DNA from: Elainellaceae cyanobacterium
GTDB taxonomy: Bacteria > Cyanobacteriota > Cyanobacteriia > CAZCXK01
Assembly: GCA_051117555.1 (NCBI GenBank)
Contig: JBNPEG010000177.1
Span: 1 to 17,063 of the forward strand
Direction of reading: 5' to 3'
DNA length: 17,063 nt
This document shows, piece after piece, positions 1 through 17,063 of this stretch. Numbering within the stretch: position 1 is the first letter of the stretch; each line of letters opens with the position of its first letter. Under the pieces are notes generated by a model. That model was not told the origin of the DNA and did not search any database. It worked only from the letters and a program-made list of their open reading frames with translations. The position numbers were made by a program, and so were the translations under genes.

Positions 1-122
1 TAAAACGGGTCGAAAAGTTGCTGAAGATTTCAAAGCCAACATGAAGATTGTCTTCGATGAAGTTTTACCACAATGGAATTACACAGCCAAACCAGAATTA
101 CAGATTATTTAATTCCCGTTCC
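1..122 (+). mobile_element. Right end of an ISAzo13-like IS; putative IRR ending ...TTATTTAATTCCCGTTCC, followed by a putative 3-bp target duplication TTA (123-125)
   Basis: The transposase stop is followed by 10 nt, then the sequence switches abruptly to IS630 coding sequence at TTA-GAT-GAG-TGT-CAT (L-D-E-C-H). The left end is outside the window, so the IR cannot be confirmed. Confidence 0.65.
2..112 (+). CDS. ISAzo13-family transposase, C-terminal end (partial, runs in from the left edge)
   Basis: Frame from nt 2 (not in the ORF track) reads KTGRKVAEDFKANMKIVFDEVLPQWNYTAKPELQII*. The TGRKV...F...WNYT.P tail resembles ISAzo13-type transposase C-termini. Stop TAA at 110-112. Confidence 0.8.
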   Translation, partial: KTGRKVAEDFKANMKIVFDEVLPQWNYTAKPELQII

Positions 123-656
123 TTAGATGAGTGTCATTTGTTATGGGGAGATATCTGTGGCTACGGATGGAGTCGGCGCAATCAGCGCGTTGAGGTTGAG
201 GTCAAATCGACCAAAGAACGGCAAACCTACTATGGGGCTTTGGACTACTTGAGCAAACGCTTTATAGTGCAGGAGTACAGCGCAGGCAATGAGGACAATA
301 CGATTGAGTTTTTGAAATACCTCCAGTCGTTGGCAGAAGAATCAACTCGATGGATCATCATTTGGGATGGAGCCAGCTACCACCGCTCTCACAAAGTGAA
401 GGAGTTTCTGGCTCAGTTGAATAGCGGACGACCTGAGGAGGAATGGAAGATGACCTTGGTTCGCTTAGCCCCCAATGCACCGGAGCAAAATCCAGTGGAG
501 GATGTGTGGTTGCAAGCCAAACAGTTTGTTCGGAAGTATGCTCGCATGTGCAAGAAATTCAAGTCGGTTAAGTTGCTATTTGGACTGGTAACGCATTTGC
601 AAACCTTCGCTTTTCCTAAAGCATTCATGTACGGTTATTGTTCATGTCCTATTTGA
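123..656 (+). pseudogene. IS630-family transposase, C-terminal DDE domain, interrupted by the ISAzo13-like insertion
   Basis: Motifs LDECHLLWGD, IIWDGASYH and LAPNAPEQNPVEDVW give the IS630/DDE_3 D-D-E triad. Residues encoded upstream of nt 123 in the ORF track are unrelated read-through of the other IS. Confidence 0.88.
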
Positions 657-666
657 GAACGGTATA
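123..666 (+). mobile_element. IS630-family element, right portion, with putative right end ...CCTATTTGAGAACGGTA and TA target dinucleotide (665-666)
   Basis: The end overlaps the transposase stop and finishes in TATA, consistent with the TA duplication typical of IS630. Confidence 0.6.
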
Positions 667-838
667 TGAGTAGATGGGTGCTGCGTATAACCCGTTTTGA
701 ATCGGGACTGAAGTTTTTCGAGGAATTAGTTTAATCTTCCATCATTATTCAATTTAGCACTGGAATGAGCTGTTATTTATAGCATCTAATATCAACATTA
801 ATTCTAAATTAAAAATTGATCGCTGCAACCATTAAAGG

Positions 839-1315
839 GGCATAAAAACATTAATGTTTAGATGCCATAATGCCTGCCCAGCCAAACAGATAAAATATCG
901 TTTATCAGTTTAAGAGTTCAACATTATCTGTCTACTTAATAAAGCAAATCTTAAATGTTTAACTTCGCCACTATGCTCGCATTTTTGTTCTGAGAAAGAG
1001 CGTAGAGTTCAATAACTACCAACCTATATGCCTGACAAATGCTGAATGTATTATGAGGTAAGCTGCTTTCTGAATGACTGGTTAAGTCTAGCCTTCACGA
1101 AATCTTGTGCTATCCAATCCATTCAAGGTATGCGTCGAAAACTTGATCTACAAAGTCTAAAATCAGGCTCTACTTTTACTCGGTTTTTGTTTATATCACA
1201 CCCGGAATAAATTAAATTTATTAATTTTATTCATGAATACGAAATTCATGCAAAAAACATAATAAATAACACACAAAATCCATCAGAAGTGCAGACAAAT
1301 CCAACAATAATTGTT
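839..1315. promoter_or_regulatory. AT-rich upstream region of the globin/GTPase cluster with several palindromes (candidate operator sites)
   Basis: GGCAT-aa-AAACATTAATGTTT-ag-ATGCC (839-866); GATAAA-N6-TTTATC (889-906); AATAAATT-A-AATTTATT (1206-1222); TATTCATGAATA (1228-1239); AACAAT-A-ATTGTT (1303-1315). No ORF of 60 aa or more in the region. Confidence 0.4.
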
Positions 1316-1355
1316 AGAAAAGTAGAGATCCAAACCTTCATAGCAAGGAGACCTT

Positions 1356-1910
1356 ATGACGCTCGATCCCCATCTATTTATGACCACTATGGAAAAGCGA
1401 GTGGGATTCACAGATGAAGATAAATCTCTATTGAACGCTCATGCAGACTGGGGTAAGCAAATTGCGCCCGAAATGGCTGATCATTTTTATGCCTATCTCA
1501 ATCGCGATGAAGAGATGAGCCAGATCTTGAATGCCAAAGAAGGTCGGATTCATCGCCTTCGCGAAACCTTCGTGGACTGGTTTTACGAGATGTTTACCGG
1601 CATGGATGAATGGAACAAAGACTATGCCGAACGCCGCTGGAGGATTGGTCTGGTTCATGTCCAAATTGGGATTGGGCCTCAGCATGTCGTTCCGGCGATG
1701 GCAACCGTCGTTCATGAAGTTGGCAAGAAACTTCGCGAAGAAGGTAAAAGCGAATCTCTTCAATTTGCTCTCAGCCGCATTTGCATGATTGATCTGGCAT
1801 TTATAGAGCAAGCCTATGTAGAGGTCAGTTCTGCAGCAGTGCTTCGAGAGACAGGCTGGACAGAAGGCTTATTCAAGCGTCTGATTACAACGGGTGCAGG
1901 CTCGATGTAA
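1356..1910 (+). CDS. Stand-alone protoglobin / globin-sensor domain protein (184 aa)
   Basis: Pattern GFTDEDKSLL...ADHFYAYL...RLRETF..WF.EMF...YAERRWRIGLVHVQIGIGPQHV matches sensor globins: B10-like Tyr in FYAYL and proximal F8 His in GLVH. RBS AGGGAG upstream. No fused output domain. Confidence 0.88.
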   Translation: MTLDPHLFMTTMEKRVGFTDEDKSLLNAHADWGKQIAPEMADHFYAYLNRDEEMSQILNAKEGRIHRLRETFVDWFYEMFTGMDEWNKDYAERRWRIGLVHVQIGIGPQHVVPAMATVVHEVGKKLREEGKSESLQFALSRICMIDLAFIEQAYVEVSSAAVLRETGWTEGLFKRLITTGAGSM

Positions 1911-1983
1911 GGCTGAATATATCTGCTTTTCAAGGCAACACGTCACACATGATTTCTTCTAAATATTAACCAAAGGAACAACG

Positions 1984-2352
1984 ATGGCAATTAATACCGA
2001 GAAACTGGGACACATCTTACAAAATTTCGTCACCACCACAACGGATGTTCAAGGAGCAGCCGTAGTCACCCCCGATGGACTACCGCTGTCTACTAGCCTT
2101 CCCGGTTCAATGGATGAGGAGCGAGTTTCTGCCATGTCTGCGGCGATGCTTTCATTAGGGGAACGCATCGGCGTCGAACTCGCACGAGGCGGCATCGATC
2201 GCCTGTATGTTGAAGGCAATCAAGGGTTCAGCATCTTAACCAGTTGTGGTCAAGATGCAGTATTTCTAGTTCTAGCTGGAAAGGCAGCGAAGCAAGGTGT
2301 TCTCATGCTAGAGATCAAGCGGACGGTTGAAGACTTGAGACGTGTTTTATAA
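1984..2352 (+). CDS. Roadblock/LC7 domain protein (MglB/CvnB-like, putative GAP)
   Basis: 122 aa with VQGAAVVTPDGLPL, ERVSAMSAAMLSLGERIGVEL and GVLMLEIKR, typical of the Roadblock fold. RBS AAGGA upstream. Confidence 0.92.
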   Translation: MAINTEKLGHILQNFVTTTTDVQGAAVVTPDGLPLSTSLPGSMDEERVSAMSAAMLSLGERIGVELARGGIDRLYVEGNQGFSILTSCGQDAVFLVLAGKAAKQGVLMLEIKRTVEDLRRVL

Positions 2353-2477
2353 GCCGTTGAGTTTGCGAGTTTGATCTCGATGATCCTGCTGCAAGGGTGC
2401 ATCTTCCCCCTCTCGTCTGTTGCCCCCTTTACCGTTATTCCATGTATTAACTCAAGCAGCTTAGCGGAGCAATTTTA

Positions 2478-3095
2478 ATGGAACTCCTGCGTTTAGTCGT
2501 TACCGGAACTCCAGGGGCTGGCAAATCTACCTTTGTTCGATCCGTTAGCTCAATCGGAGCTGTTGATACCGATCGCACAGCGACCGATTCAACCGCAGAG
2601 ATTAAATCAAAAACAACAGTTGCATTTGATTTTGGTCGAGTCACTGTCGGCAGCGGACTGGAACTCCACGTATATGGCACACCAGGGCAATCGCGCTTTA
2701 ACTTTATGTGGGATATTCTCATTCGCAGAGCCCATGCTTACATTTTGCTAATCGCGGCGCATCGTCCCCACGAATTTGGCAAAGCGTTGCAAATTCGTGC
2801 CTTTATGAATGAGCATGCACCTTCAATTCCGATGGTGATCGGCATGACCCATCTCGATCGTCCGGGGGCGTGTGACCCGGAAGAGATCATGCTCCGGCTC
2901 GGATTTTTTGATCGAAATAATCGACCTCCAATGGTGGCTGTCAATGCGGGCGATCGCGCTTCTGCAAATCAAGCCATCAATGTGTTGCTGCTTGCCCTAC
3001 TCATGTATCGTCATCAGCTTCAATCACAGGCGACAACATCCCCAGAACCGCGACTTCGTTCAAGGCTTGGACCGCAAGCCATGATGATGCGCTAG
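2478..3095 (+). CDS. MglA/CvnD-like small GTPase 1 (ATP/GTP-binding protein)
   Basis: G1 GTPGAGKST, G2 TTVAFDFG, G3 YGTPGQSRF, G4-like THLD. Carries a ~25-aa extra polar/basic C-terminal tail. Confidence 0.92.
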   Translation: MELLRLVVTGTPGAGKSTFVRSVSSIGAVDTDRTATDSTAEIKSKTTVAFDFGRVTVGSGLELHVYGTPGQSRFNFMWDILIRRAHAYILLIAAHRPHEFGKALQIRAFMNEHAPSIPMVIGMTHLDRPGACDPEEIMLRLGFFDRNNRPPMVAVNAGDRASANQAINVLLLALLMYRHQLQSQATTSPEPRLRSRLGPQAMMMR

Positions 3096-3141
3096 CTGCG
3101 CACAATTCATTCATGTACATATACAGGGTTAGGAGGGATCG

Positions 3142-3687
3142 GTGACGCTTAATTCAGATGTGATCCGCATCGTGGTCACAGGGACTGTCGGCGCAGGTAA
3201 GTCTACGTTTGTACAAACTGTCAATCAATTTGGCGTTGTCGAAACCGATGAAATCGCAACAGATGCTATGGCACTGCGGAAGCCAACTACAACGGTTGCG
3301 CTCGATTTTAGTCGAATTGCACTCAGTTCTAACATCGTGCTGCATGTGTATGGAACGCCGGGGCAATCACGCTTTGATTTTATGTGGGAGTTGTTGATTC
3401 AACGAGCCCACGTCTATGTAGTGCTGGTGGCTGCACATCGCCCCGAAGACTTACCCCAGACTCGCGGCATTATGACATTTATGGCAGAGCGCACGTCTGT
3501 TCCAATGATTATCGGCATTACGCATACCGATTGTTCGGGAGCGATGGGTCCGACCGCAATTCTGGCTCAGCTAGGATATCTCGACCTCGGCCATCAGCCT
3601 CCCCACTTAATTATTAATCCTCATGAGCGATCATCTGTGTTTGCAGCGCTCGCTACGGCAGCTAATCAGATCATGATCCGTCCTTGA
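3142..3687 (+). CDS. MglA/CvnD-like small GTPase 2 (paralog of the preceding gene)
   Basis: GTG start with RBS AGGAGG. G1 GTVGAGKST, G2 TTVALDF, G3 YGTPGQSRF, G4-like THTD. Confidence 0.92.
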   Translation: MTLNSDVIRIVVTGTVGAGKSTFVQTVNQFGVVETDEIATDAMALRKPTTTVALDFSRIALSSNIVLHVYGTPGQSRFDFMWELLIQRAHVYVVLVAAHRPEDLPQTRGIMTFMAERTSVPMIIGITHTDCSGAMGPTAILAQLGYLDLGHQPPHLIINPHERSSVFAALATAANQIMIRP

Positions 3688-3727
3688 CGAATGCTACATT
3701 TCAACATCCGGCGCATCCCCGCAATCG

Positions 3728-5587
3728 ATGGAGTCATCCATGCCTGAGGCGATAGTTCGATATCCGTTATGCTTTCAAAGGTCGAATCAGCCTGTCATTG
3801 ACGCGCAGGTGATTCAACGCTTCAGTCAACTTGCTCAGAATCCATCTCCTTATCAGCTTCCTCCTGACTTGGGCTACTTTATTGGTCGTCAAGCCGAGCT
3901 GCATCAAAACTTGATTTTGCTTCAGCAGGCGGTCTATTCGTTTAATCCAGTGACTCGGATTATGGCGATCGCAGGGGATGCGGGGCTAGGCAAGTCAGCG
4001 TTTGCGATTCATCTTGCTCATCAGCTCAAAACCGACTTTCCTGATGCTCAACTTTATGTCGATTTGCGAGGGAATGAGCGTCATCCGACTGATCCTGCTG
4101 ATGTGTTAGTGAGTTTTTTACGCGCCTGGGGCATTGAGGATGATGCGATTCCTACTAATCTACCTGAGCGCTCCCAGTTCTTTCAGCAGTTGGTTGCGGG
4201 CAATCGCACCTTATTGGTGTTAGACAATGCTGCTGATGATACCCAAATTGCTCCGCTGATTCCGGCTGGGATTACCTGCGGCGTGATTGTGACCAGTCGC
4301 AAACCGTTACCTCGGCTTAATGATGCGGCGCGGCTCAAATTAGCTCCGTTTTCGGATGCTGACGCGCTGACGCTTCTGCAAACCCTTGCAGGAGCAAAGC
4401 GAATTCAATCGGGCGAGACGACTCATCGGCTGATTCAACTCTGCGAAGGCAATCCGCTGGCACTGTCGCTGATTGGCAGCATGGTTAACCATCCGCCCGT
4501 TGAGTCTCTTGAGAGTGTGATCAAACAACTTGACGCTGAGCGGCAGCGATTAGACCCACTAGGATCAAGCTCGTCTGCGATTCGGTCGTGCTTTATGGTC
4601 AGCTATCAAACCCTAAATCCTGATGCGGCTCGTTTGCTGCGCGGTTTGGGGTTATTATCAGAACCCGACTTCACGGCTGCGATCGCCCCAGCCTTGCTAG
4701 ATAGTTCTGAGGCTGATGCCCAAGAGGCGATCGCCCAACTCGTCTCCCGGCAGCTTCTACACCCCCTCGGTAATAATCGCTATCGCTTACATAGCGTCAT
4801 TCGCCGATTTGCCAAAAATCAGTTGGCGCTAGAAGAGTCTGCAGATGCTCGTCATGCGACTCGTCTCCACATCAGCCAGTGGTATTCTGACGCCGCTCAA
4901 GTTCTTAATCTTACGCTAGACCCTGCGACACGGGGTGCATTTACGCAAGCGGTTCATCAAATGAGCGATCGCCCAGATCCGCTTTTCCAGAATGCTCCGG
5001 CAGCGGCACTTAATTGGTTTACTATTGAGTATTCCACCATCTTGACAGCCTTTGAATGGGCAGAACAATCCCAAGATTGCGAACGGGTCGCGGCATTTGC
5101 GCTGAGCCTTGCGCCCTTTTTTGATAGGACTCGCAACCAAAACGGTTGGGAACATACCCATCAGCGGGCATTAGCCCTCACCCAGATAACGGGCGATCGC
5201 CTCAAGGAAGCCCAACTATGGACTCACTTGGGGCATCTTGACTTGCGGTATCAGCAGTTTGAACGGGCGAAAACCCGATACGAGAAAAGTATTGCTCTGT
5301 TTCAAGACCAACGCAATCTTCAGGGAGAAGCCCTGGGTTTAGCACATCTTGGGCTTTTAGAGCGAGAACAAAGTCAGATTGAAAAGGCGATCGCCTTTTG
5401 GGAAATTGCGTTCGAAAAACTTGCCGCCACTCCACCCGCCCAAAAGAAACTGATTCGATGGATGCAGATGACGGATAGCGCGCTGTTTGCTCAAATCAAT
5501 CGTTCTCAGAACGCTGAAGCAACGCCTGACACGGATAGTCTTTTCAAAAATCTAGGCGGCACGCTCCGCAAGTGGTTTAAGGGCTAG
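3728..5587 (+). CDS. STAND NTPase, NB-ARC + winged helix + TPR (AfsR-like core without an N-terminal DNA-binding or effector domain)
   Basis: QLPPDLGYFIGRQAEL, Walker A GDAGLGKS, FPDAQLYVDLRG, Walker B LLVLDNA, sensor-1 VIVTSR, GxP GNPLAL, MHD-like RYRLHS, TPR-like repeats (EAQLWTHLGHL..., EALGLAHLGLL...). Alternative start ATG at 3740. Confidence 0.88.
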   Translation: MESSMPEAIVRYPLCFQRSNQPVIDAQVIQRFSQLAQNPSPYQLPPDLGYFIGRQAELHQNLILLQQAVYSFNPVTRIMAIAGDAGLGKSAFAIHLAHQLKTDFPDAQLYVDLRGNERHPTDPADVLVSFLRAWGIEDDAIPTNLPERSQFFQQLVAGNRTLLVLDNAADDTQIAPLIPAGITCGVIVTSRKPLPRLNDAARLKLAPFSDADALTLLQTLAGAKRIQSGETTHRLIQLCEGNPLALSLIGSMVNHPPVESLESVIKQLDAERQRLDPLGSSSSAIRSCFMVSYQTLNPDAARLLRGLGLLSEPDFTAAIAPALLDSSEADAQEAIAQLVSRQLLHPLGNNRYRLHSVIRRFAKNQLALEESADARHATRLHISQWYSDAAQVLNLTLDPATRGAFTQAVHQMSDRPDPLFQNAPAAALNWFTIEYSTILTAFEWAEQSQDCERVAAFALSLAPFFDRTRNQNGWEHTHQRALALTQITGDRLKEAQLWTHLGHLDLRYQQFERAKTRYEKSIALFQDQRNLQGEALGLAHLGLLEREQSQIEKAIAFWEIAFEKLAATPPAQKKLIRWMQMTDSALFAQINRSQNAEATPDTDSLFKNLGGTLRKWFKG

Positions 5588-5719
5588 CTAAGTTGGTGCC
5601 GGGTCATTCAATACGCACCCCGATTCCGCATCAGCTTGGGTCTAGGCGTAGCGCTAATAGCGAGTCTTCGCGTTTGGCACAGTCTGGTTTACTCCCCGAT
5701 GTGCCGAGGAGGTCGTGAT

Positions 5720-6292
5720 TTAGTCGCTAAAAACAGCCTCGTAGAGGTCGGCTAGGGCAATTTCTACGCTGACTGATTGCAGCGTTAATGACTGGCTGTA
5801 ATATTCTGTAAATAGCCATTGGTTTTCGGCCTGTTTTACGTACTGCTCAACATGGGGCTTATATTGATCAATCAGGAGATATTCCTGAAAGGTGGGGATA
5901 GTGCGGTATGCCTCAAACTTGTCGCCTCGGTCATAGCCCTGAGTGGAGCCAGAGAGCACTTCCGCCATCAAAATGGGGGTCATCACCGTGTCCTTGCGTC
6001 CTGGCTTGAGATCTACCGGGCGGGATGTCACCATGATGTCGGGATAGGTATACACGTTGCGCTCAGGAATCCACAGACGCTGATCGGTCACAAACACGCT
6101 ATAGGATTGATTCCGCAATGCAAACCAAAGCAGGGCATTCAACGCACTAACAATGTTGTTATGTTCAGGAGTTCCCCCCGTCATTGGCACGATATCTCCA
6201 TCGCGGTACTCGTTACGAATGTCAGATTCTACCTCAAGCGCGAGATATTCCTCTGCGGTACAGGGTTTGGTTTGGCTAGAGGCAAGTGTCAT
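5720..6292 (-). CDS. Uma2 (DUF820) family PD-(D/E)xK endonuclease-like protein
   Basis: EYRDGDIVPMTGGTPEHN, YPDIMV, EVLSGST..YDRGDK..AY, EYLLIDQ; this family is highly expanded in cyanobacteria. Confidence 0.92.
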   Translation of the reverse strand: MTLASSQTKPCTAEEYLALEVESDIRNEYRDGDIVPMTGGTPEHNNIVSALNALLWFALRNQSYSVFVTDQRLWIPERNVYTYPDIMVTSRPVDLKPGRKDTVMTPILMAEVLSGSTQGYDRGDKFEAYRTIPTFQEYLLIDQYKPHVEQYVKQAENQWLFTEYYSQSLTLQSVSVEIALADLYEAVFSD

Positions 6293-6360
6293 GGCGTTCG
6301 TTCCTCTAAAATTGCTTTCCGTGCGGTTTTGTCTGTGATCCTCTCAAATATTCACCACAG

Positions 6361-6624
6361 CTATTCGATTCGTTGAATTTTTTCATTTTCAATCCACTGC
6401 TCAATCGGTGCCCAGCGGCTAAATCGATACTCTGGATCAAGCAGCACAATCAGAATGATAAATGACCGAGAACTGAACCGGCGGGTAAGGTGTCCGAGGA
6501 CTTTGCCCTTGGAATAGTGATCAAACTGGACGCGATCGCCCTTACGAAATCGAGATTGATAATCAGAGTTTGAAATTAGATAGGGTTGGGTAGACGCAAT
6601 TTCATCCATTGTTTCATGTATCAC
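6361..6624 (-). CDS. Small hypothetical protein (82-87 aa), possibly an SH3/KOW-like beta barrel
   Basis: Co-oriented with Uma2, 68 bp upstream of it. FRKGDRVQF..YSKGKV resembles KOW/SH3 starts and contains a HIP1 site. Start GTG 6624 or ATG 6609. Confidence 0.5.
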   Translation of the reverse strand: MIHETMDEIASTQPYLISNSDYQSRFRKGDRVQFDHYSKGKVLGHLTRRFSSRSFIILIVLLDPEYRFSRWAPIEQWIENEKIQRIE

Positions 6625-6730
6625 GGTAAGCTGGGGGCTACTTAATACGCCGGTTGGTGCATTTCTAGCTATCAGCTATTGGCAACGCGTTGGCGCATGG
6701 TATGAAACAACAGGGAATACACACGATAGG

Positions 6731-6864
6731 CTGCTCTGTAAAGGGTTAAATGTCCCCATTGGGGGCTTGTAAACCCCGTCTTTCTCAAAACCTGATGTGT
6801 CAAAGAACTCCAGGTCTAGAGGGTGACGGGCTTAAATGGGGATTTAACCCTTACATGGGAGATA
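6731..6864 (+). ncRNA. Candidate structured RNA: long rod-like imperfect hairpin, family unassigned
   Basis: TGTAaAGGGTTAAATgtCCCCATT (6737-6760) pairs with AATGGGGATTTAACCCTTACA (6835-6855); CCCGTC (6775-6780) with GACGGG (6825-6830); TTTCT with AGAGG (G-U pairs on the + strand); ACCTG (6790-6794) with CAGGT (6811-6815). Confidence 0.45.
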
Positions 6865-7109
6865 GGGGGCTCTTATTAGAAGAATCACGACGAACTCAGT
6901 AAATTCCGCATTAAGATAAACCCAATTTTATGAAGCTCACTTGAAGAGAGGTGTTGCTGATTTGGCTGATTTAGATGATCAATATGTGCTCATATGTGCT
7001 CAAAACTAAAGGGTGGGATAATACGGTAAGTGGGTGGGCGGAATCAAATGTAGTGGTCTGACATGCTTAAGATGATGCAAATCCTTAAAGGGCTGAAGCT
7101 CTTGAATCC

Positions 7110-7140
7110 GGTGCGTTATGCTGCGCTAACGATACCCTAC
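7110..7140 (-). repeat. REP-like palindrome (GTAG + hairpin)
   Basis: Minus strand reads GTAGGGTATCGTTAGCGCAGCATAACGCACC: GTAG followed by an imperfect stem GGT..CGTTA/TAACGCACC. Confidence 0.65.
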
Positions 7141-7170
7141 CTAATGCACAATTTTAGCTGTGCCACGCCA

Positions 7171-7308
7171 GTAGGATGGGTATAGCCCTTCGGGCATGGC
7201 TTCGCTAAAGCGATAGCGTAACCCATGCGGGCGTTGGGTTATTGCCTTCGGCAAGGCTGCGCCTTTCTTGAATGCCCCTTGGGCTATACGTACCTCAACC
7301 CAACCTAC
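7171..7308. repeat. Inverted REP-like doublet (GTAGGATGGGT...AACCCAT / GTTGGGTT...AACCCAACCTAC), each half interrupted by mini-hairpin inserts
   Basis: GTAG at the left end and CTAC at the right end. Internal triloop hairpins GCCC-TTC-GGGC, TGGC-TTC-GCTA, TTGCC-TTC-GGCAA, AGGC-TGC-GCCT and GCCC-CTT-GGGC. Confidence 0.7.
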
Positions 7309-7420
7309 ACAAGTCTCATATTTAATTAGTCCTACCTACTTACGAATTACTATCTTGTCGACTAGCCCCCTACAGTTTGAACCATCATCGCAACAATACA
7401 GACGTGATTAAGGATGCAGC

Positions 7421-8266
7421 ATGCACAGTTTCATTCCTCCCGATCGATTTTTTGCCTATCTCTCCTGGACAGATATCCACGCCATCCGAGATAAGGCGAA
7501 TGTTGTGCTAGTTCAGCCGATTGGCGCCATCGAGCAGCATGGTCCCCACTTACCGCTGATTGTCGATGCTGCCATTGGCACAGCAGTTTTGGGCAAAGCA
7601 TTAGAAAAGCTAGAGTCAGAGATTCCGGCCTATGCGTTGCCTCCGCTCTATTACGGCAAGTCGAATGAACATTGGCACTTTCCGGGCACGGTGACCCTTA
7701 CAGCCCAAACGCTCATCACGATGCTGATGGAAATTGCAGACAGCCTCTATCGCGCCGGGTTTCGCAAGCTGGTGCTGATGAATTCTCACGGGGGACAGCC
7801 CCAGATTATGGAAATCGTGGCGCGAGACTTGCATCAACGGCATGACGATTTTATGGTGTTTCCCCTGTTTACGTGGAAGGTGCCTAATAGGGCTAGCGAC
7901 CTGATATCTCCTAAAGAAAAAGAATTAGGCATTCATGCAGGCGATGCAGAAACCAGCATCATGCTGTCGATCTTGCCGGATCAGGTGAAGATGAACCGAG
8001 CTATGACAGAATATCCCCACGGGTTGCCCGATGATAGTTTGCTCAGCATGGAAGGAAAACTGCCGTTTGCGTGGGTGACGCGGGATCTGAGCCGCAGCGG
8101 TGTATTGGGTGATCCGACAGTTGCTACCAAGGAAAAGGGCGATCGCATTTTAGAGTCGGTGTCTGATGGCTGGGTGAACGTCATCCGCGATATCCATCGG
8201 TTTCGGCAACCTCAAGCGTGGAAAGGCTGGAATGACACGTCTGACGACTGGGGAAATGAGCAATAA
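7421..8266 (+). CDS. Creatininase-family amidohydrolase (substrate unknown)
   Basis: Metal-binding motifs PIGAIEQHGPHLPLIVD, YGKSNEH..FPGT, NSHGGQ, HAGDAETS, and SGVLGDPT.AT.EKG. Confidence 0.92.
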   Translation: MHSFIPPDRFFAYLSWTDIHAIRDKANVVLVQPIGAIEQHGPHLPLIVDAAIGTAVLGKALEKLESEIPAYALPPLYYGKSNEHWHFPGTVTLTAQTLITMLMEIADSLYRAGFRKLVLMNSHGGQPQIMEIVARDLHQRHDDFMVFPLFTWKVPNRASDLISPKEKELGIHAGDAETSIMLSILPDQVKMNRAMTEYPHGLPDDSLLSMEGKLPFAWVTRDLSRSGVLGDPTVATKEKGDRILESVSDGWVNVIRDIHRFRQPQAWKGWNDTSDDWGNEQ

Positions 8267-16286: not shown

Positions 16287-17063
16287 ATGAATTCTCAAGA
16301 AGCCCTGACACTTGTCGAAGCCATTCTCACCGAAACGCGGTTAAACAAACTGCAACGCACGGTCTTTTGCGATGCCTGGAATGACAAGTCGTATTTAGAA
16401 ATCGCTCACTCGTCTGGATATGAGTTGGGATATGTCAAGCAAACGGGGTCCCAATTGTGGCAATTACTTTCCCGCGTGCTCAACGAGCGGGTCACAAAGC
16501 ACAATCTTCATGGCGTGCTGAAACGAAAAGTAGCCAGTGAAATGGGCACTCCTGCGTCTAGCAAGACGATTTACGGGCGGGATGCTCGTCCTTCCAATGG
16601 TTTGGATACGGCGCATCGAGACGATGGCCTTGATTCACAGCCTGATTCCCCTCATGTTGACTGGGGAGATGCGATCGAAGCCGCTGCGTTTGTCGGTCGG
16701 ACGGCAGAGCTTGATCGATTTGAGCAGTGGATTCGACAGGATTGTTGCCGATTATTGGGGCTGTTTGGGATGGGAGGGATCGGCAAGACCTCTCTGTCAG
16801 TTAGATTGGCAAAGCGCCTAATCCAGCCTGATGAGAGTTTGCGATCCGCTCAGCAAACTCAGGGTATCCATTCTGATATACCCTCCCAATGTGACCATCA
16901 CTCAACCTTCAATCCAGGTTTTCGCTATGCCATCTGGCGATCGCTCCGCAATGCACCTCCGTTGACGGCTCTCCTGACAGACTTGATTCAAGTTCTCTCA
17001 GACCAACGAGAAACCAATCTGCCGGATACCCTTGACGGGCAGTTGCGCCGCCTCCTTCACTAC
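16287..17063 (+). CDS. Cyanobacterial HTH + NB-ARC STAND protein (family usually carries C-terminal WD40 repeats), partial
   Basis: Not in the ORF track because it has no stop in the window. Reads MNSQEALTLVEAIL...SYLEIAHSSGYELGYVKQTGSQLWQLLS...VTKHNL (HTH), then DWGDAIEAAAFVGRTAEL, Walker A GMGGIGKT, IWRSLRNAPP. Open to the window end (259 codons). Confidence 0.9.
   Translation, partial: MNSQEALTLVEAILTETRLNKLQRTVFCDAWNDKSYLEIAHSSGYELGYVKQTGSQLWQLLSRVLNERVTKHNLHGVLKRKVASEMGTPASSKTIYGRDARPSNGLDTAHRDDGLDSQPDSPHVDWGDAIEAAAFVGRTAELDRFEQWIRQDCCRLLGLFGMGGIGKTSLSVRLAKRLIQPDESLRSAQQTQGIHSDIPSQCDHHSTFNPGFRYAIWRSLRNAPPLTALLTDLIQVLSDQRETNLPDTLDGQLRRLLHY

Follow-up and report, generated by a model that had tools for sequence, protein, structure and literature searches.

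What might an NLR-type ATPase be doing at the end of a run of genes for a globin, a Roadblock protein and two small GTPases? The question is raised by a 17,063-bp stretch of DNA ('the window'), the whole of contig C250 (GenBank JBNPEG010000177.1) in the 6.06-Mb draft genome of an Elainellaceae cyanobacterium, in which five open reading frames (ORFs), all on the + strand, encode in that order a globin, a Roadblock/LC7 protein, two small GTPases (A and B) and a STAND ATPase with an NB-ARC module and tetratricopeptide-like (TPR) repeats (Table 1). The answer that we favour, and to which we would give a probability of roughly 55%, is that the five genes make up a single signalling operon, in which a haem-gated Roadblock/GTPase switch is joined to a membrane-tethered STAND by way of the TPR half of that protein, and that this operon is the rarer sister of a widespread cassette composed of a sensor (globin or V4R), a Roadblock protein, a GTPase and an output protein.

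The argument starts from the neighbours of STAND orthologues in other genomes. A scan of species-representative genomes, in which the query was an alignment of four orthologues, returned 46 loci, 23 of them cyanobacterial with at least 32% identity, and 22 of these were analysed at ORF level (L035, on a 2.6-kb contig, was left out, and L017 and L031 are interrupted by contig ends). The carriers are Coleofasciculus, Symploca, Caldora, Microcoleus, Allocoleopsis, Limnofasciculus, Phormidium tenue, Leptolyngbya, Nodosilinea, Stenomitos and some metagenome-assembled genomes, and three of the 22 loci are places already found in a sample of 401 cyanobacterial genomes. At 21 of the 22, the STAND gene is preceded by Roadblock and/or GTPase genes in the same orientation; the cluster gene nearest to the STAND is a GTPase gene at 12 loci, a Roadblock gene at nine, and neither at one (L034, Nodosilinea). 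Also upstream, 18 loci have either a globin gene or a V4R-like gene encoding 154–180 amino acids, gaps are mostly below 200 bp, and the exact gene order of the window is found again at L022 and L026 (Symploca). The association covers several families and several gene orders, and this recurrence shows that the arrangement exceeds chance. Because the synteny is conserved, the STAND is functionally linked to the sensor/Roadblock/GTPase module. The first-pass annotation of this DNA, made from the letters alone, had named in advance the outcome that would have told against such a link, namely STAND orthologues that are never syntenic with the module; what was seen is nearly the reverse.

None of the 23 non-cyanobacterial loci, which are AfsR-like with 23–47% partial identity, had a globin, V4R or Roadblock match. 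Metagenome contigs yielded one full-length orthologue (L099), with a GTPase gene upstream and a globin–GTPase pair downstream; the other 26 metagenome loci were without the module, 24 of them having a distant tblastn match to the STAND. The STAND is rare even in cyanobacteria: it was detected in four of the 401 sampled genomes at E≤1e-40 (three candidates being scored per genome), the best match in the three other carriers lying directly behind Roadblock/GTPase genes, and in two of 41 relatives at E≤1e-20, and a search of a 99%-complete congener (G002) did not turn it up.

The globin family, with 59–79% identity among its members, is more widely distributed (44 copies in 31 of the 401 genomes), and shows what usually stands where the STAND stands here. 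Only three of the 44 copies are beside a STAND gene. Around 40 of the other copies (about 11.5 kb each) there was no STAND; 28 lie with Roadblock, GTPase and DUF4388 (PATAN) genes, one with Roadblock only, and 11 are solitary. The 28 PATAN-type loci have three recurring gene orders, often with a V4R protein as well, and bear out the earlier suggestion that globin–Roadblock–GTPase neighbourhoods occur in cyanobacteria. A cluster of this kind is present as a paralogue in the same genome as the window (contig C174, 4303–7215, minus strand), made up of globin (71% identity), Roadblock (79%), GTPase (54–57%) and DUF4388/PATAN genes. No DUF4388 gene follows the GTPases in the window; where the commoner cassette has PATAN, this one has the STAND. 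In a maximum-likelihood tree of 59 GTPases, a branch with support 98/92 divides 27 from PATAN clusters from 32 from STAND clusters, the paralogous GTPases of this one genome (window and C174) falling on opposite sides; the GTPase encoded next to the STAND at L017 is the sister of GTPase B (support 100/97), each on a long branch. The tree shows that the two sets of GTPases have had a long separate history, and nothing more than that. In Synechocystis, PATAN is a membrane-localized output domain that binds PilB1 and PilC, and PATAN genes often neighbour homologues of MglA and MglB (bioRxiv 10.1101/2021.06.11.447907, cited from part of the preprint); a membrane association of the STAND family, discussed below, would fit the location of this counterpart.

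The sensor position is also variable. A second family, represented by L006:6257–6721 and 17 further genes (for example at L019–L021), is found in the position of the globin, immediately before the Roadblock gene. Its members have no Pfam match above threshold, although 12 of the 18 have weak V4R matches (best E 8.5e-4), and a profile of the family gave only chance-level matches to PDB sequences. An AlphaFold2 model (pLDDT 81, pTM 0.80) retrieved, through Foldseek, the V4R domains by which PoxR, MopR and DmpR sense phenols (E about 2e-6, TMq 0.71), followed by Bet3/TRAPPC3 (TMq about 0.65) and a Nostoc H-NOX (TMq 0.56), in keeping with fold relations between V4R, TRAPPC3 and H-NOX that have been described previously (PMC10933270). 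One Cys is invariant in the family and a second is mostly conserved. Globin and V4R-fold sensors are thus interchangeable ahead of Roadblock. No V4R-like copy was found in the genome that contains the window. Loci in Coleofasciculus may have as many as four tandem V4R–Roadblock pairs before the STAND. At L025 and L042 the sensor–Roadblock pair is followed by the STAND with no GTPase gene in the stretch covered; at L024 the STAND-proximal cassette is without one; and at L023 and L029 (Leptolyngbya-type), again with no GTPase gene in the stretch covered, V4R–Roadblock is followed by a TPR-only protein (L023:1621–2829 and L029:8860–10038; 392–402 amino acids), homologous only to the winged-helix/TPR half of the STAND, with TPR Pfam matches and no NB-ARC. 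As these TPR-only homologues come directly after V4R–Roadblock, the TPR half is the likely docking half of the STAND for the Roadblock/GTPase module. The first-pass annotation had the gene content of the cluster right, while sensor interchangeability, tandem cassettes, GTPase-less loci and the membrane-tailed character of the STAND family were absent from it.

We also draw attention to a gene of the MIP/aquaporin family inserted between Roadblock genes and the GTPase/STAND part at two Coleofasciculus loci (L018:3803–4477 and L020:7958–8668), a possible sign that a small uncharged solute serves as a cue.

What do the individual proteins of the window suggest? The globin matches Pfam Protoglobin (PF11563) at 4.4e-23 (82.5 bits against a cut-off of 25), and over its whole length (residues 1–184) it matches PDB entry 8H17, 'Tlr1989 protein', at E 1.6e-87; judged by that match it is an orthologue of this solved protein, on which no paper was found in the searchable literature (subscription journals lying outside the coverage). 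Y45 and H101 align with the residues of the globin-coupled sensors 5OHE, 2W31 and 1OR4 that we take to act as distal Tyr (B10) and proximal His. A protoglobin-type fold with both residues is what would be expected of a sensor globin, and the protein probably binds haem and senses diatomic gases.

The Roadblock protein has a Robl_LC7 domain (PF03259; 6.5e-16, 58.3 bits against 23) and matches archaeal and bacterial Roadblock structures (7F8M, 4.2e-23; 9JUE, 1.1e-19) as well as CvnB5 (3LEQ, 2.5e-10). Its residues 30–32 are P-D-G, and so include the Asp-Gly pair that is conserved in MglB partners of MglA groups 2–5 (Wuichet and Sogaard-Andersen 2014, PMC4316618, cited here and below from part of its text). 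With this pair, the Robl_LC7 domain and a GTPase gene alongside, it resembles the MglB and CvnB partner proteins, and by analogy it may be a GTPase-activating protein (GAP) or some other regulator of the GTPases of the window.

Both GTPases have their best Pfam match to ATP_bind_1 (PF03029), at 1.2e-10 (42.1 bits against 27) for GTPase A, with Roc and Ras weaker, and at 1.1e-14 (55.3 bits against 27) for GTPase B, which found no match among PDB sequences at 0.01. They are paralogues of about 50% identity, A bearing a basic C-terminal extension of about 35 amino acids and B being short, and a 113-nt direct repeat in the DNA (2664–2776 and 3340–3452, 71% identity) results from this paralogy of the two genes around the G3 region. 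A P-loop of the form GxxxxGK[ST], a Thr-Thr G2 motif without an intrinsic Arg finger and a GTPGQ G3 motif are invariant in both and in 24 aligned relatives, and both share these features with MglA groups 2–5, which GTPGQ defines (PMC4316618). The G4 motif is different, being T-H-L-D in A and T-H-T-D in B, and its His is at least 90% conserved across the alignment of the family; the same source gives [NT]KxD for groups 1, 4 and 5, groups 2 and 3 also deviating.

The STAND protein matches NB-ARC (PF00931) at 6e-12 (45.8 bits against 23.5) and, weakly, TPR_12. Its residues 40–455 match AfsR (8JKE) at 3.1e-52, the NCBIfam AfsR profile scores 244 bits against a cut-off of 1430 and is covered only at positions 285–691, and in its NB-ARC module and first TPR repeats the protein is closest to AfsR/SARP and XRE helix-turn-helix (HTH) regulators of Actinomycetota (31–36% identity). 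A model built with AlphaFold2 on 21 orthologues (pLDDT 84.8, pTM 0.82) shows a disordered N-terminus, nucleotide-binding (NBD), helical (HD) and winged-helix (WHD) domains, about eleven TPR-like helices and a final helix of low confidence, and its Foldseek matches include the archaeal STAND–TPR protein 6MFV, ADP-bound Apaf-1, plant NLRs and CED-4. Walker A (G83/G86/G88/K89), Walker B (D166), T189, P243-L244 and H355 are invariant in the 21 orthologues, so that the NBD–HD–WHD order, the GxP motif and the MHD-like His of NB-ARC (AP-ATPase) proteins are all there. The protein begins only about 45 residues ahead of the P-loop region (the alternative start M5, at 3740, is a Met conserved in orthologues and may be the true one), which leaves it without a DNA-binding or other effector domain; there was no Pfam match to the SARP DNA-binding domain (Trans_reg_C and BTAD), and Pfam, the model and homologues gave no sign of a nuclease, protease, TIR or other effector domain. 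Residues 355–356 (window positions 4790–4795) are His-Ser, whereas His-Asp is present in at least 90% of the orthologues and in AfsR. Alteration of the Asp of the MHD motif is activating in plant NLRs.

The C-terminal end gives some indication of where the STAND works. In 15 of 23 family members there is a hydrophobic 19-residue stretch with mean Kyte–Doolittle hydropathy above 2.3, which suggests a tail anchor. The window protein and seven others have no transmembrane tail, most of them ending in a short basic segment, and the last 14-residue stretch of the window protein has a helical hydrophobic moment of 0.69, greater than that of every internal segment. This amphipathic basic helix is a candidate membrane-targeting tail, and membrane association may thus be a trait of the family.

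How might such a system work? The globin would bind haem and change state with O2, NO or CO, or with redox conditions, as its conserved haem residues and the solved structure of an orthologue lead one to suppose. It would then act on the Roadblock dimer encoded by the adjacent gene, a step suggested by the invariant adjacency of sensor and Roadblock genes and by a known fusion of a globin to a Roadblock domain. The Roadblock protein, from its homology and that of the GTPases to the MglB/MglA and CvnB/CvnD pairs, would determine whether GTPases A and B carry GTP or GDP. GTPase and/or Roadblock would bind the STAND at its TPR half, and this docking would shift the ADP/ATP-dependent closed/open or oligomeric state of the STAND at the cytoplasmic membrane. 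A plausible guess at the output, by analogy with the PATAN form of the cassette, is a membrane process such as the control of gliding or of pili in oxygen gradients.

Several considerations weigh against this reading. The protein contacts, haem binding, GTPase and GAP activities and co-transcription that it calls for are all deduced from sequence. With T-H-x-D in place of [NT]KxD at G4, specificity for guanine is not assured. A Roadblock rather than a GTPase gene is nearest to the STAND at nine of the 22 loci, and the genome of L029 (G427), which has V4R–Roadblock–TPR, gave no GTPase match at 1e-10, so the GTPase may not be an obligatory link to the STAND. None of 50 longer homologues of GTPase B carried NB-ARC or TPR (two carried protein-kinase domains), and the longer homologues of Roadblock included no fusion to NB-ARC, the six matches being uninformative. 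In the globin tree, STAND-linked and PATAN-linked copies are poorly resolved, with no clean split. The loci themselves are phylogenetically clustered, being mostly from Coleofasciculaceae, and so are not independent; their genes came from a plain ORF finder and were assigned by BLAST to the proteins of the window; and the groups in the GTPase tree were defined by gene neighbours, the two window GTPases being long branches. The window copy, moreover, with its MHD-like Ser and its long-branch GTPases, could be relaxed or altered in regulation. Co-folding of the STAND with GTPase B, GTP and Mg gave an ipSAE of 0.00 in two runs, which were made without controls and speak neither for nor against the reading.

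Might the STAND serve as something other than a switch read by the GTPases? It could be a membrane platform, similar to Ragulator, that recruits the Roadblock dimer and the GTPases, leaving the latter to act on targets encoded elsewhere, such as pilus or gliding machinery. The transmembrane or amphipathic tails, the lack of an effector domain, the TPR-only homologues that remain behind V4R–Roadblock without any NTPase module, and the membrane-localized PATAN counterpart with its pilus-motor partners would all suit a platform, which we regard as possible, if on the whole unlikely: it leaves unexplained why the NB-ARC module should be complete in 21 of 23 members, its Walker A and B motifs and MHD-like His being invariant, and no target is known. 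Alternatively, Roadblock might regulate the STAND NTPase directly, at NB-ARC or TPR, the GTPases being accessories to a sensor–Roadblock–STAND core. Roadblock proteins were proposed as general NTPase regulators by Koonin and Aravind (2000), as far as papers citing them relate, and the five loci with a sensor–Roadblock pair directly before the STAND or TPR gene (L023, L024, L025, L029 and L042), together with the lack of a GTPase match at 1e-10 in G427, are what would be expected of such a core. Yet a GTPase gene lies between Roadblock and STAND at 12 of the 22 loci and in the window, the position of STAND-cluster GTPases on their own side of a supported branch implies a long co-history, and the genomes G425 and G426 have a GTPase elsewhere, so that we consider direct regulation improbable.

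A role in defence was among the options offered by the first-pass annotation, and would make the system NLR-like: a triggered STAND would oligomerize and its transmembrane tail would damage the membrane, the sensor, Roadblock and GTPase genes serving to gate it. Many bacterial STANDs are antiviral, Avs3 is among the weaker Foldseek matches (rank 15), the distribution is patchy (the four genomes in 401, and the empty congener), cassette copy number varies, a transposase fragment and a Uma2 gene flank the cluster, and MglA–MglB modules are mentioned in putative anti-selfish-element systems (preprint 10.64898/2026.10.19.760177, cited from part of its text). However, PADLOC returned no system, only two marginal single-protein matches (a generic TPR at 1.6e-5 and mad8 at 0.0086); the STAND has no effector domain, and in the window no transmembrane tail either; its nearest relatives are the AfsR/SARP and XRE-HTH regulators; the sensors are of types that bind small molecules or gases; around the cluster lie genes of metabolism and transport, not a defence island; and HIP1 density and GC content are in line with those of the genome. 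With so little to support it, defence seems to us a doubtful explanation. Least credible of all is that the STAND is an unrelated gene that happens to follow a globin–Roadblock–GTPase module. It is true that STAND/TPR genes are numerous in filamentous cyanobacteria (61 candidates in this genome at first look), and that in G129 an unrelated second NB-ARC/TPR paralogue stands alone (L011); but fortuitous adjacency is contradicted by the recurrence of synteny at 21 of 22 orthologue loci, in several families, and at the metagenomic orthologue, by gaps mostly under 200 bp, and by a GTPase lineage specific to the cluster type.

If the five genes are indeed a sensor-driven GTPase switch coupled to a STAND, how do they compare with systems already described? 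Pairing of a Ras-superfamily GTPase gene with a Roadblock/LC7 gene is the arrangement of MglA/MglB (Myxococcus, Thermus) and of the wider MglA family, with groups 2–5 of which the window shares GTPGQ at G3, the Thr-Thr G2 lacking an Arg finger and the Asp-Gly of Roadblock (PMC4316618); cyanobacterial members of the MglA family were placed in group 5, occasionally near PATAN genes (PMC4316618). The window differs in having two GTPases for one Roadblock, T-H-x-D at G4, a soluble sensor ahead and a STAND behind, and neither 'globin' nor 'TPR' occurs as a word in the main text of that survey. The conservons of Streptomyces and Mycobacterium are likewise operons of an input protein, a Roadblock protein (CvnB) and a GTPase (CvnD, PF03029), some of which have next in line an output protein bound by the GTPase, as in MfpB–MfpA (PMC4316618). 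Unlike them, the window has no CvnA histidine-kinase-like protein and no CvnC/DUF742; its input is a soluble haem globin (V4R in relatives) and its last gene a STAND. Pentapeptide-repeat proteins of 711–773 amino acids are encoded after a globin–GTPase pair downstream of the STAND at L018–L021 (for example L019:10586–12742 and L020:15637–17952). These recall the pairing of the conservon GTPase MfpB with the pentapeptide protein MfpA (PMC4316618), and could equally be there by chance in pentapeptide-rich genomes.

The closest parallel is with the cyanobacterial PATAN cassettes, which have the same globin, Roadblock and GTPase families and the sensor ahead of Roadblock; the difference is that a second GTPase and a STAND replace PATAN, in a form that is much the rarer. 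The STAND itself has, like AfsR, an Asn after Walker B, but it lacks the N-terminal DNA-binding domain of the AfsR/SARP and XRE-HTH proteins, and its orthologues have C-terminal membrane tails. For the coupling of globin to Roadblock there is a physical precedent in HGbRL of Methylacidiphilum, a haem globin fused to Roadblock/LC7, in which its authors propose that ligand binding is relayed to the Roadblock domain (PMC4476040, from part of its text). That globin groups with HMP, FHP and Vitreoscilla haemoglobin (PMC4476040), whereas the window globin is of the Protoglobin/globin-coupled-sensor type, and HGbRL is a fusion, not separate genes, with no link to a STAND. The HGbRL paper was the only one in the searchable literature in which 'globin-coupled sensor' and Roadblock came together; there is no occurrence of GTPase, Roadblock or operon in Podar et al. 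(2008; PMC2253512). No description of a STAND-coupled Roadblock/GTPase module, of a cyanobacterial globin–Roadblock–GTPase cluster or of V4R–Roadblock arrays was found in openly searchable literature, subscription journals again being outside the coverage. GTPase/Roadblock modules, conservons and PATAN neighbourhoods are thus already known; the linkage to a STAND has solid comparative support, and its mechanism is inferred.

A more distant comparison is with the TRAPP and Ragulator platforms of eukaryotes and Asgard archaea (Bet3/TRAPPC3, longin/Roadblock, Rab/Rag), whose components are matched in loci of the relatives by a Bet3/V4R-fold protein, Roadblock, a Ras-like GTPase and a membrane-anchored scaffold. 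The likeness is limited to parts and layout, without demonstrated homology of the scaffold or exchange-factor (GEF) activity, and the window has a globin, not V4R. A bolder proposal, which we put forward tentatively and think rather unlikely, is that in filamentous cyanobacteria arrays of ligand sensors (haem globins and Bet3/V4R-fold proteins), each with its Roadblock and with or without GTPases, converge on a single tail-anchored NB-ARC/TPR STAND that acts as integrator at the membrane and whose nucleotide state would be set by Roadblock, the whole corresponding in prokaryotes to the membrane GTPase platforms of eukaryotes.

The layout of the locus itself (Table 1) suits expression as an operon. 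The gaps between the five genes are, in gene order, 73, 125, 46 and 40 bp, and a scan of positions 600–7500 placed no terminator-like site in any of them; the six sites seen (6.8 expected) are at chance level and all fall within ORFs or downstream. The number of promoter-like sites ahead of the globin gene is also at chance level (seven against 9.9 expected). In these respects, as in its gene content, for which the Pfam matches exceed the curated cut-offs, the cluster is as the first-pass annotation had described it. That annotation had also noted the want of a kinase-like, DUF742, DUF4388 or REC gene, in agreement with the Pfam scan, which detected no DUF4388 or REC domain in the five ORFs and no HATPase, HisKA or DUF742 in these or in flanking ORFs. 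Rfam and tRNA scans of the window found nothing.

Table 1. Features in and around the globin–STAND gene cluster (positions in the 17,063-bp window)
Feature	Position	Strand	Remarks
Candidate operon promoter	1135..1163	+	TCGAAA-17-TAAAAT, 9/12 matches
Globin gene	1356..1910	+	184 aa; single-domain, protoglobin/globin-coupled-sensor (GCS) family sensor type
Roadblock/LC7 gene	1984..2352	+	122 aa; MglB/CvnB-like, presumed GTPase regulator or platform
Small GTPase A gene	2478..3095	+	205 aa; MglA group 2-5/CvnD-like
Small GTPase B gene	3142..3687	+	181 aa; GTG start; STAND gene directly downstream
NB-ARC + TPR STAND ATPase gene	3728..5587	+	619 aa
NB-ARC module	3875..4837	+	Residues ~50-370 in the model: NBD ~50-205, HD ~210-295, WHD ~298-370
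TPR-like helical repeats	4841..5512	+	Residues ~372-595; helix pairs in the model and TPR_12 match
C-terminal amphipathic basic helix	5534..5581	+	Residues ~603-618; predicted, low pLDDT
DDE_3 transposase ORF	48-656	+	202-aa fragment at contig start, followed by AT-rich spacer; Pfam 3.1e-18
Uma2 gene (putative, restriction-endonuclease-like)	5720-6292	-	Pfam; next gene downstream, convergent with the operon
Second STAND-like ORF	16287-17063, cut by contig end	+	AAA_16 from residue ~135; weak FxSxx_TPR N-terminal match

An AT-rich spacer of about 700 bp (GC 0.36–0.41), devoid of HIP1 sites, precedes the globin gene. Within the cluster HIP1 (GCGATCGC) occurs seven times (1.65 per kb, against 1.51 per kb in the genome), and GC content is 0.50 against 0.49. 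Recent horizontal acquisition is conceivable, in view of the congener without the cluster and the adjoining transposase fragment, but in HIP1 density and GC content the cluster does not stand out from the genome. A search of a plasmid collection with the STAND returned 184 records, nearly all actinomycete AfsR/SARP-like proteins of less than 35% identity, which says nothing about mobility of the cluster. The second STAND-like ORF of Table 1 is unrelated to the STAND of the operon. Between 7421 and 16001, mostly on the minus strand, are genes for a creatininase-family amidohydrolase, a glutathione S-transferase (GST)-like protein, two isochorismatase-family hydrolases and an ABC transporter (two BPD_transp_2 permeases, a double ATPase and a Bmp/PnrA-type binding protein), a block that might serve in the salvage of nucleosides or amides.

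Bacterial GTPase/Roadblock switches are understood in only a few cases, such as polarity in Myxococcus and the conservons of Streptomyces, and their inputs and targets are mostly obscure. The locus described here offers a tractable input, a haem globin whose orthologue has a solved structure, and an unusual partner, an effector-less NLR-type ATPase with a membrane tail. Should the STAND prove to be an integrator of the kind tentatively proposed above, this would be the first Roadblock/GTPase module to gate an NLR-type ATPase and the first effector-less STAND to act as a pure signalling hub. The V4R(Bet3-like)–Roadblock–GTPase cassettes of relatives are relevant, too, to the prokaryotic origins of the TRAPP and Ragulator arrangements. 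If the coupling is as we suppose, it would join two major families of switches, Ras-like GTPases and STAND/NLR ATPases, in one pathway, would provide a test bed for the relay of sensor state by Roadblock proteins, and would suggest how mat-forming cyanobacteria integrate oxygen with other chemical cues.

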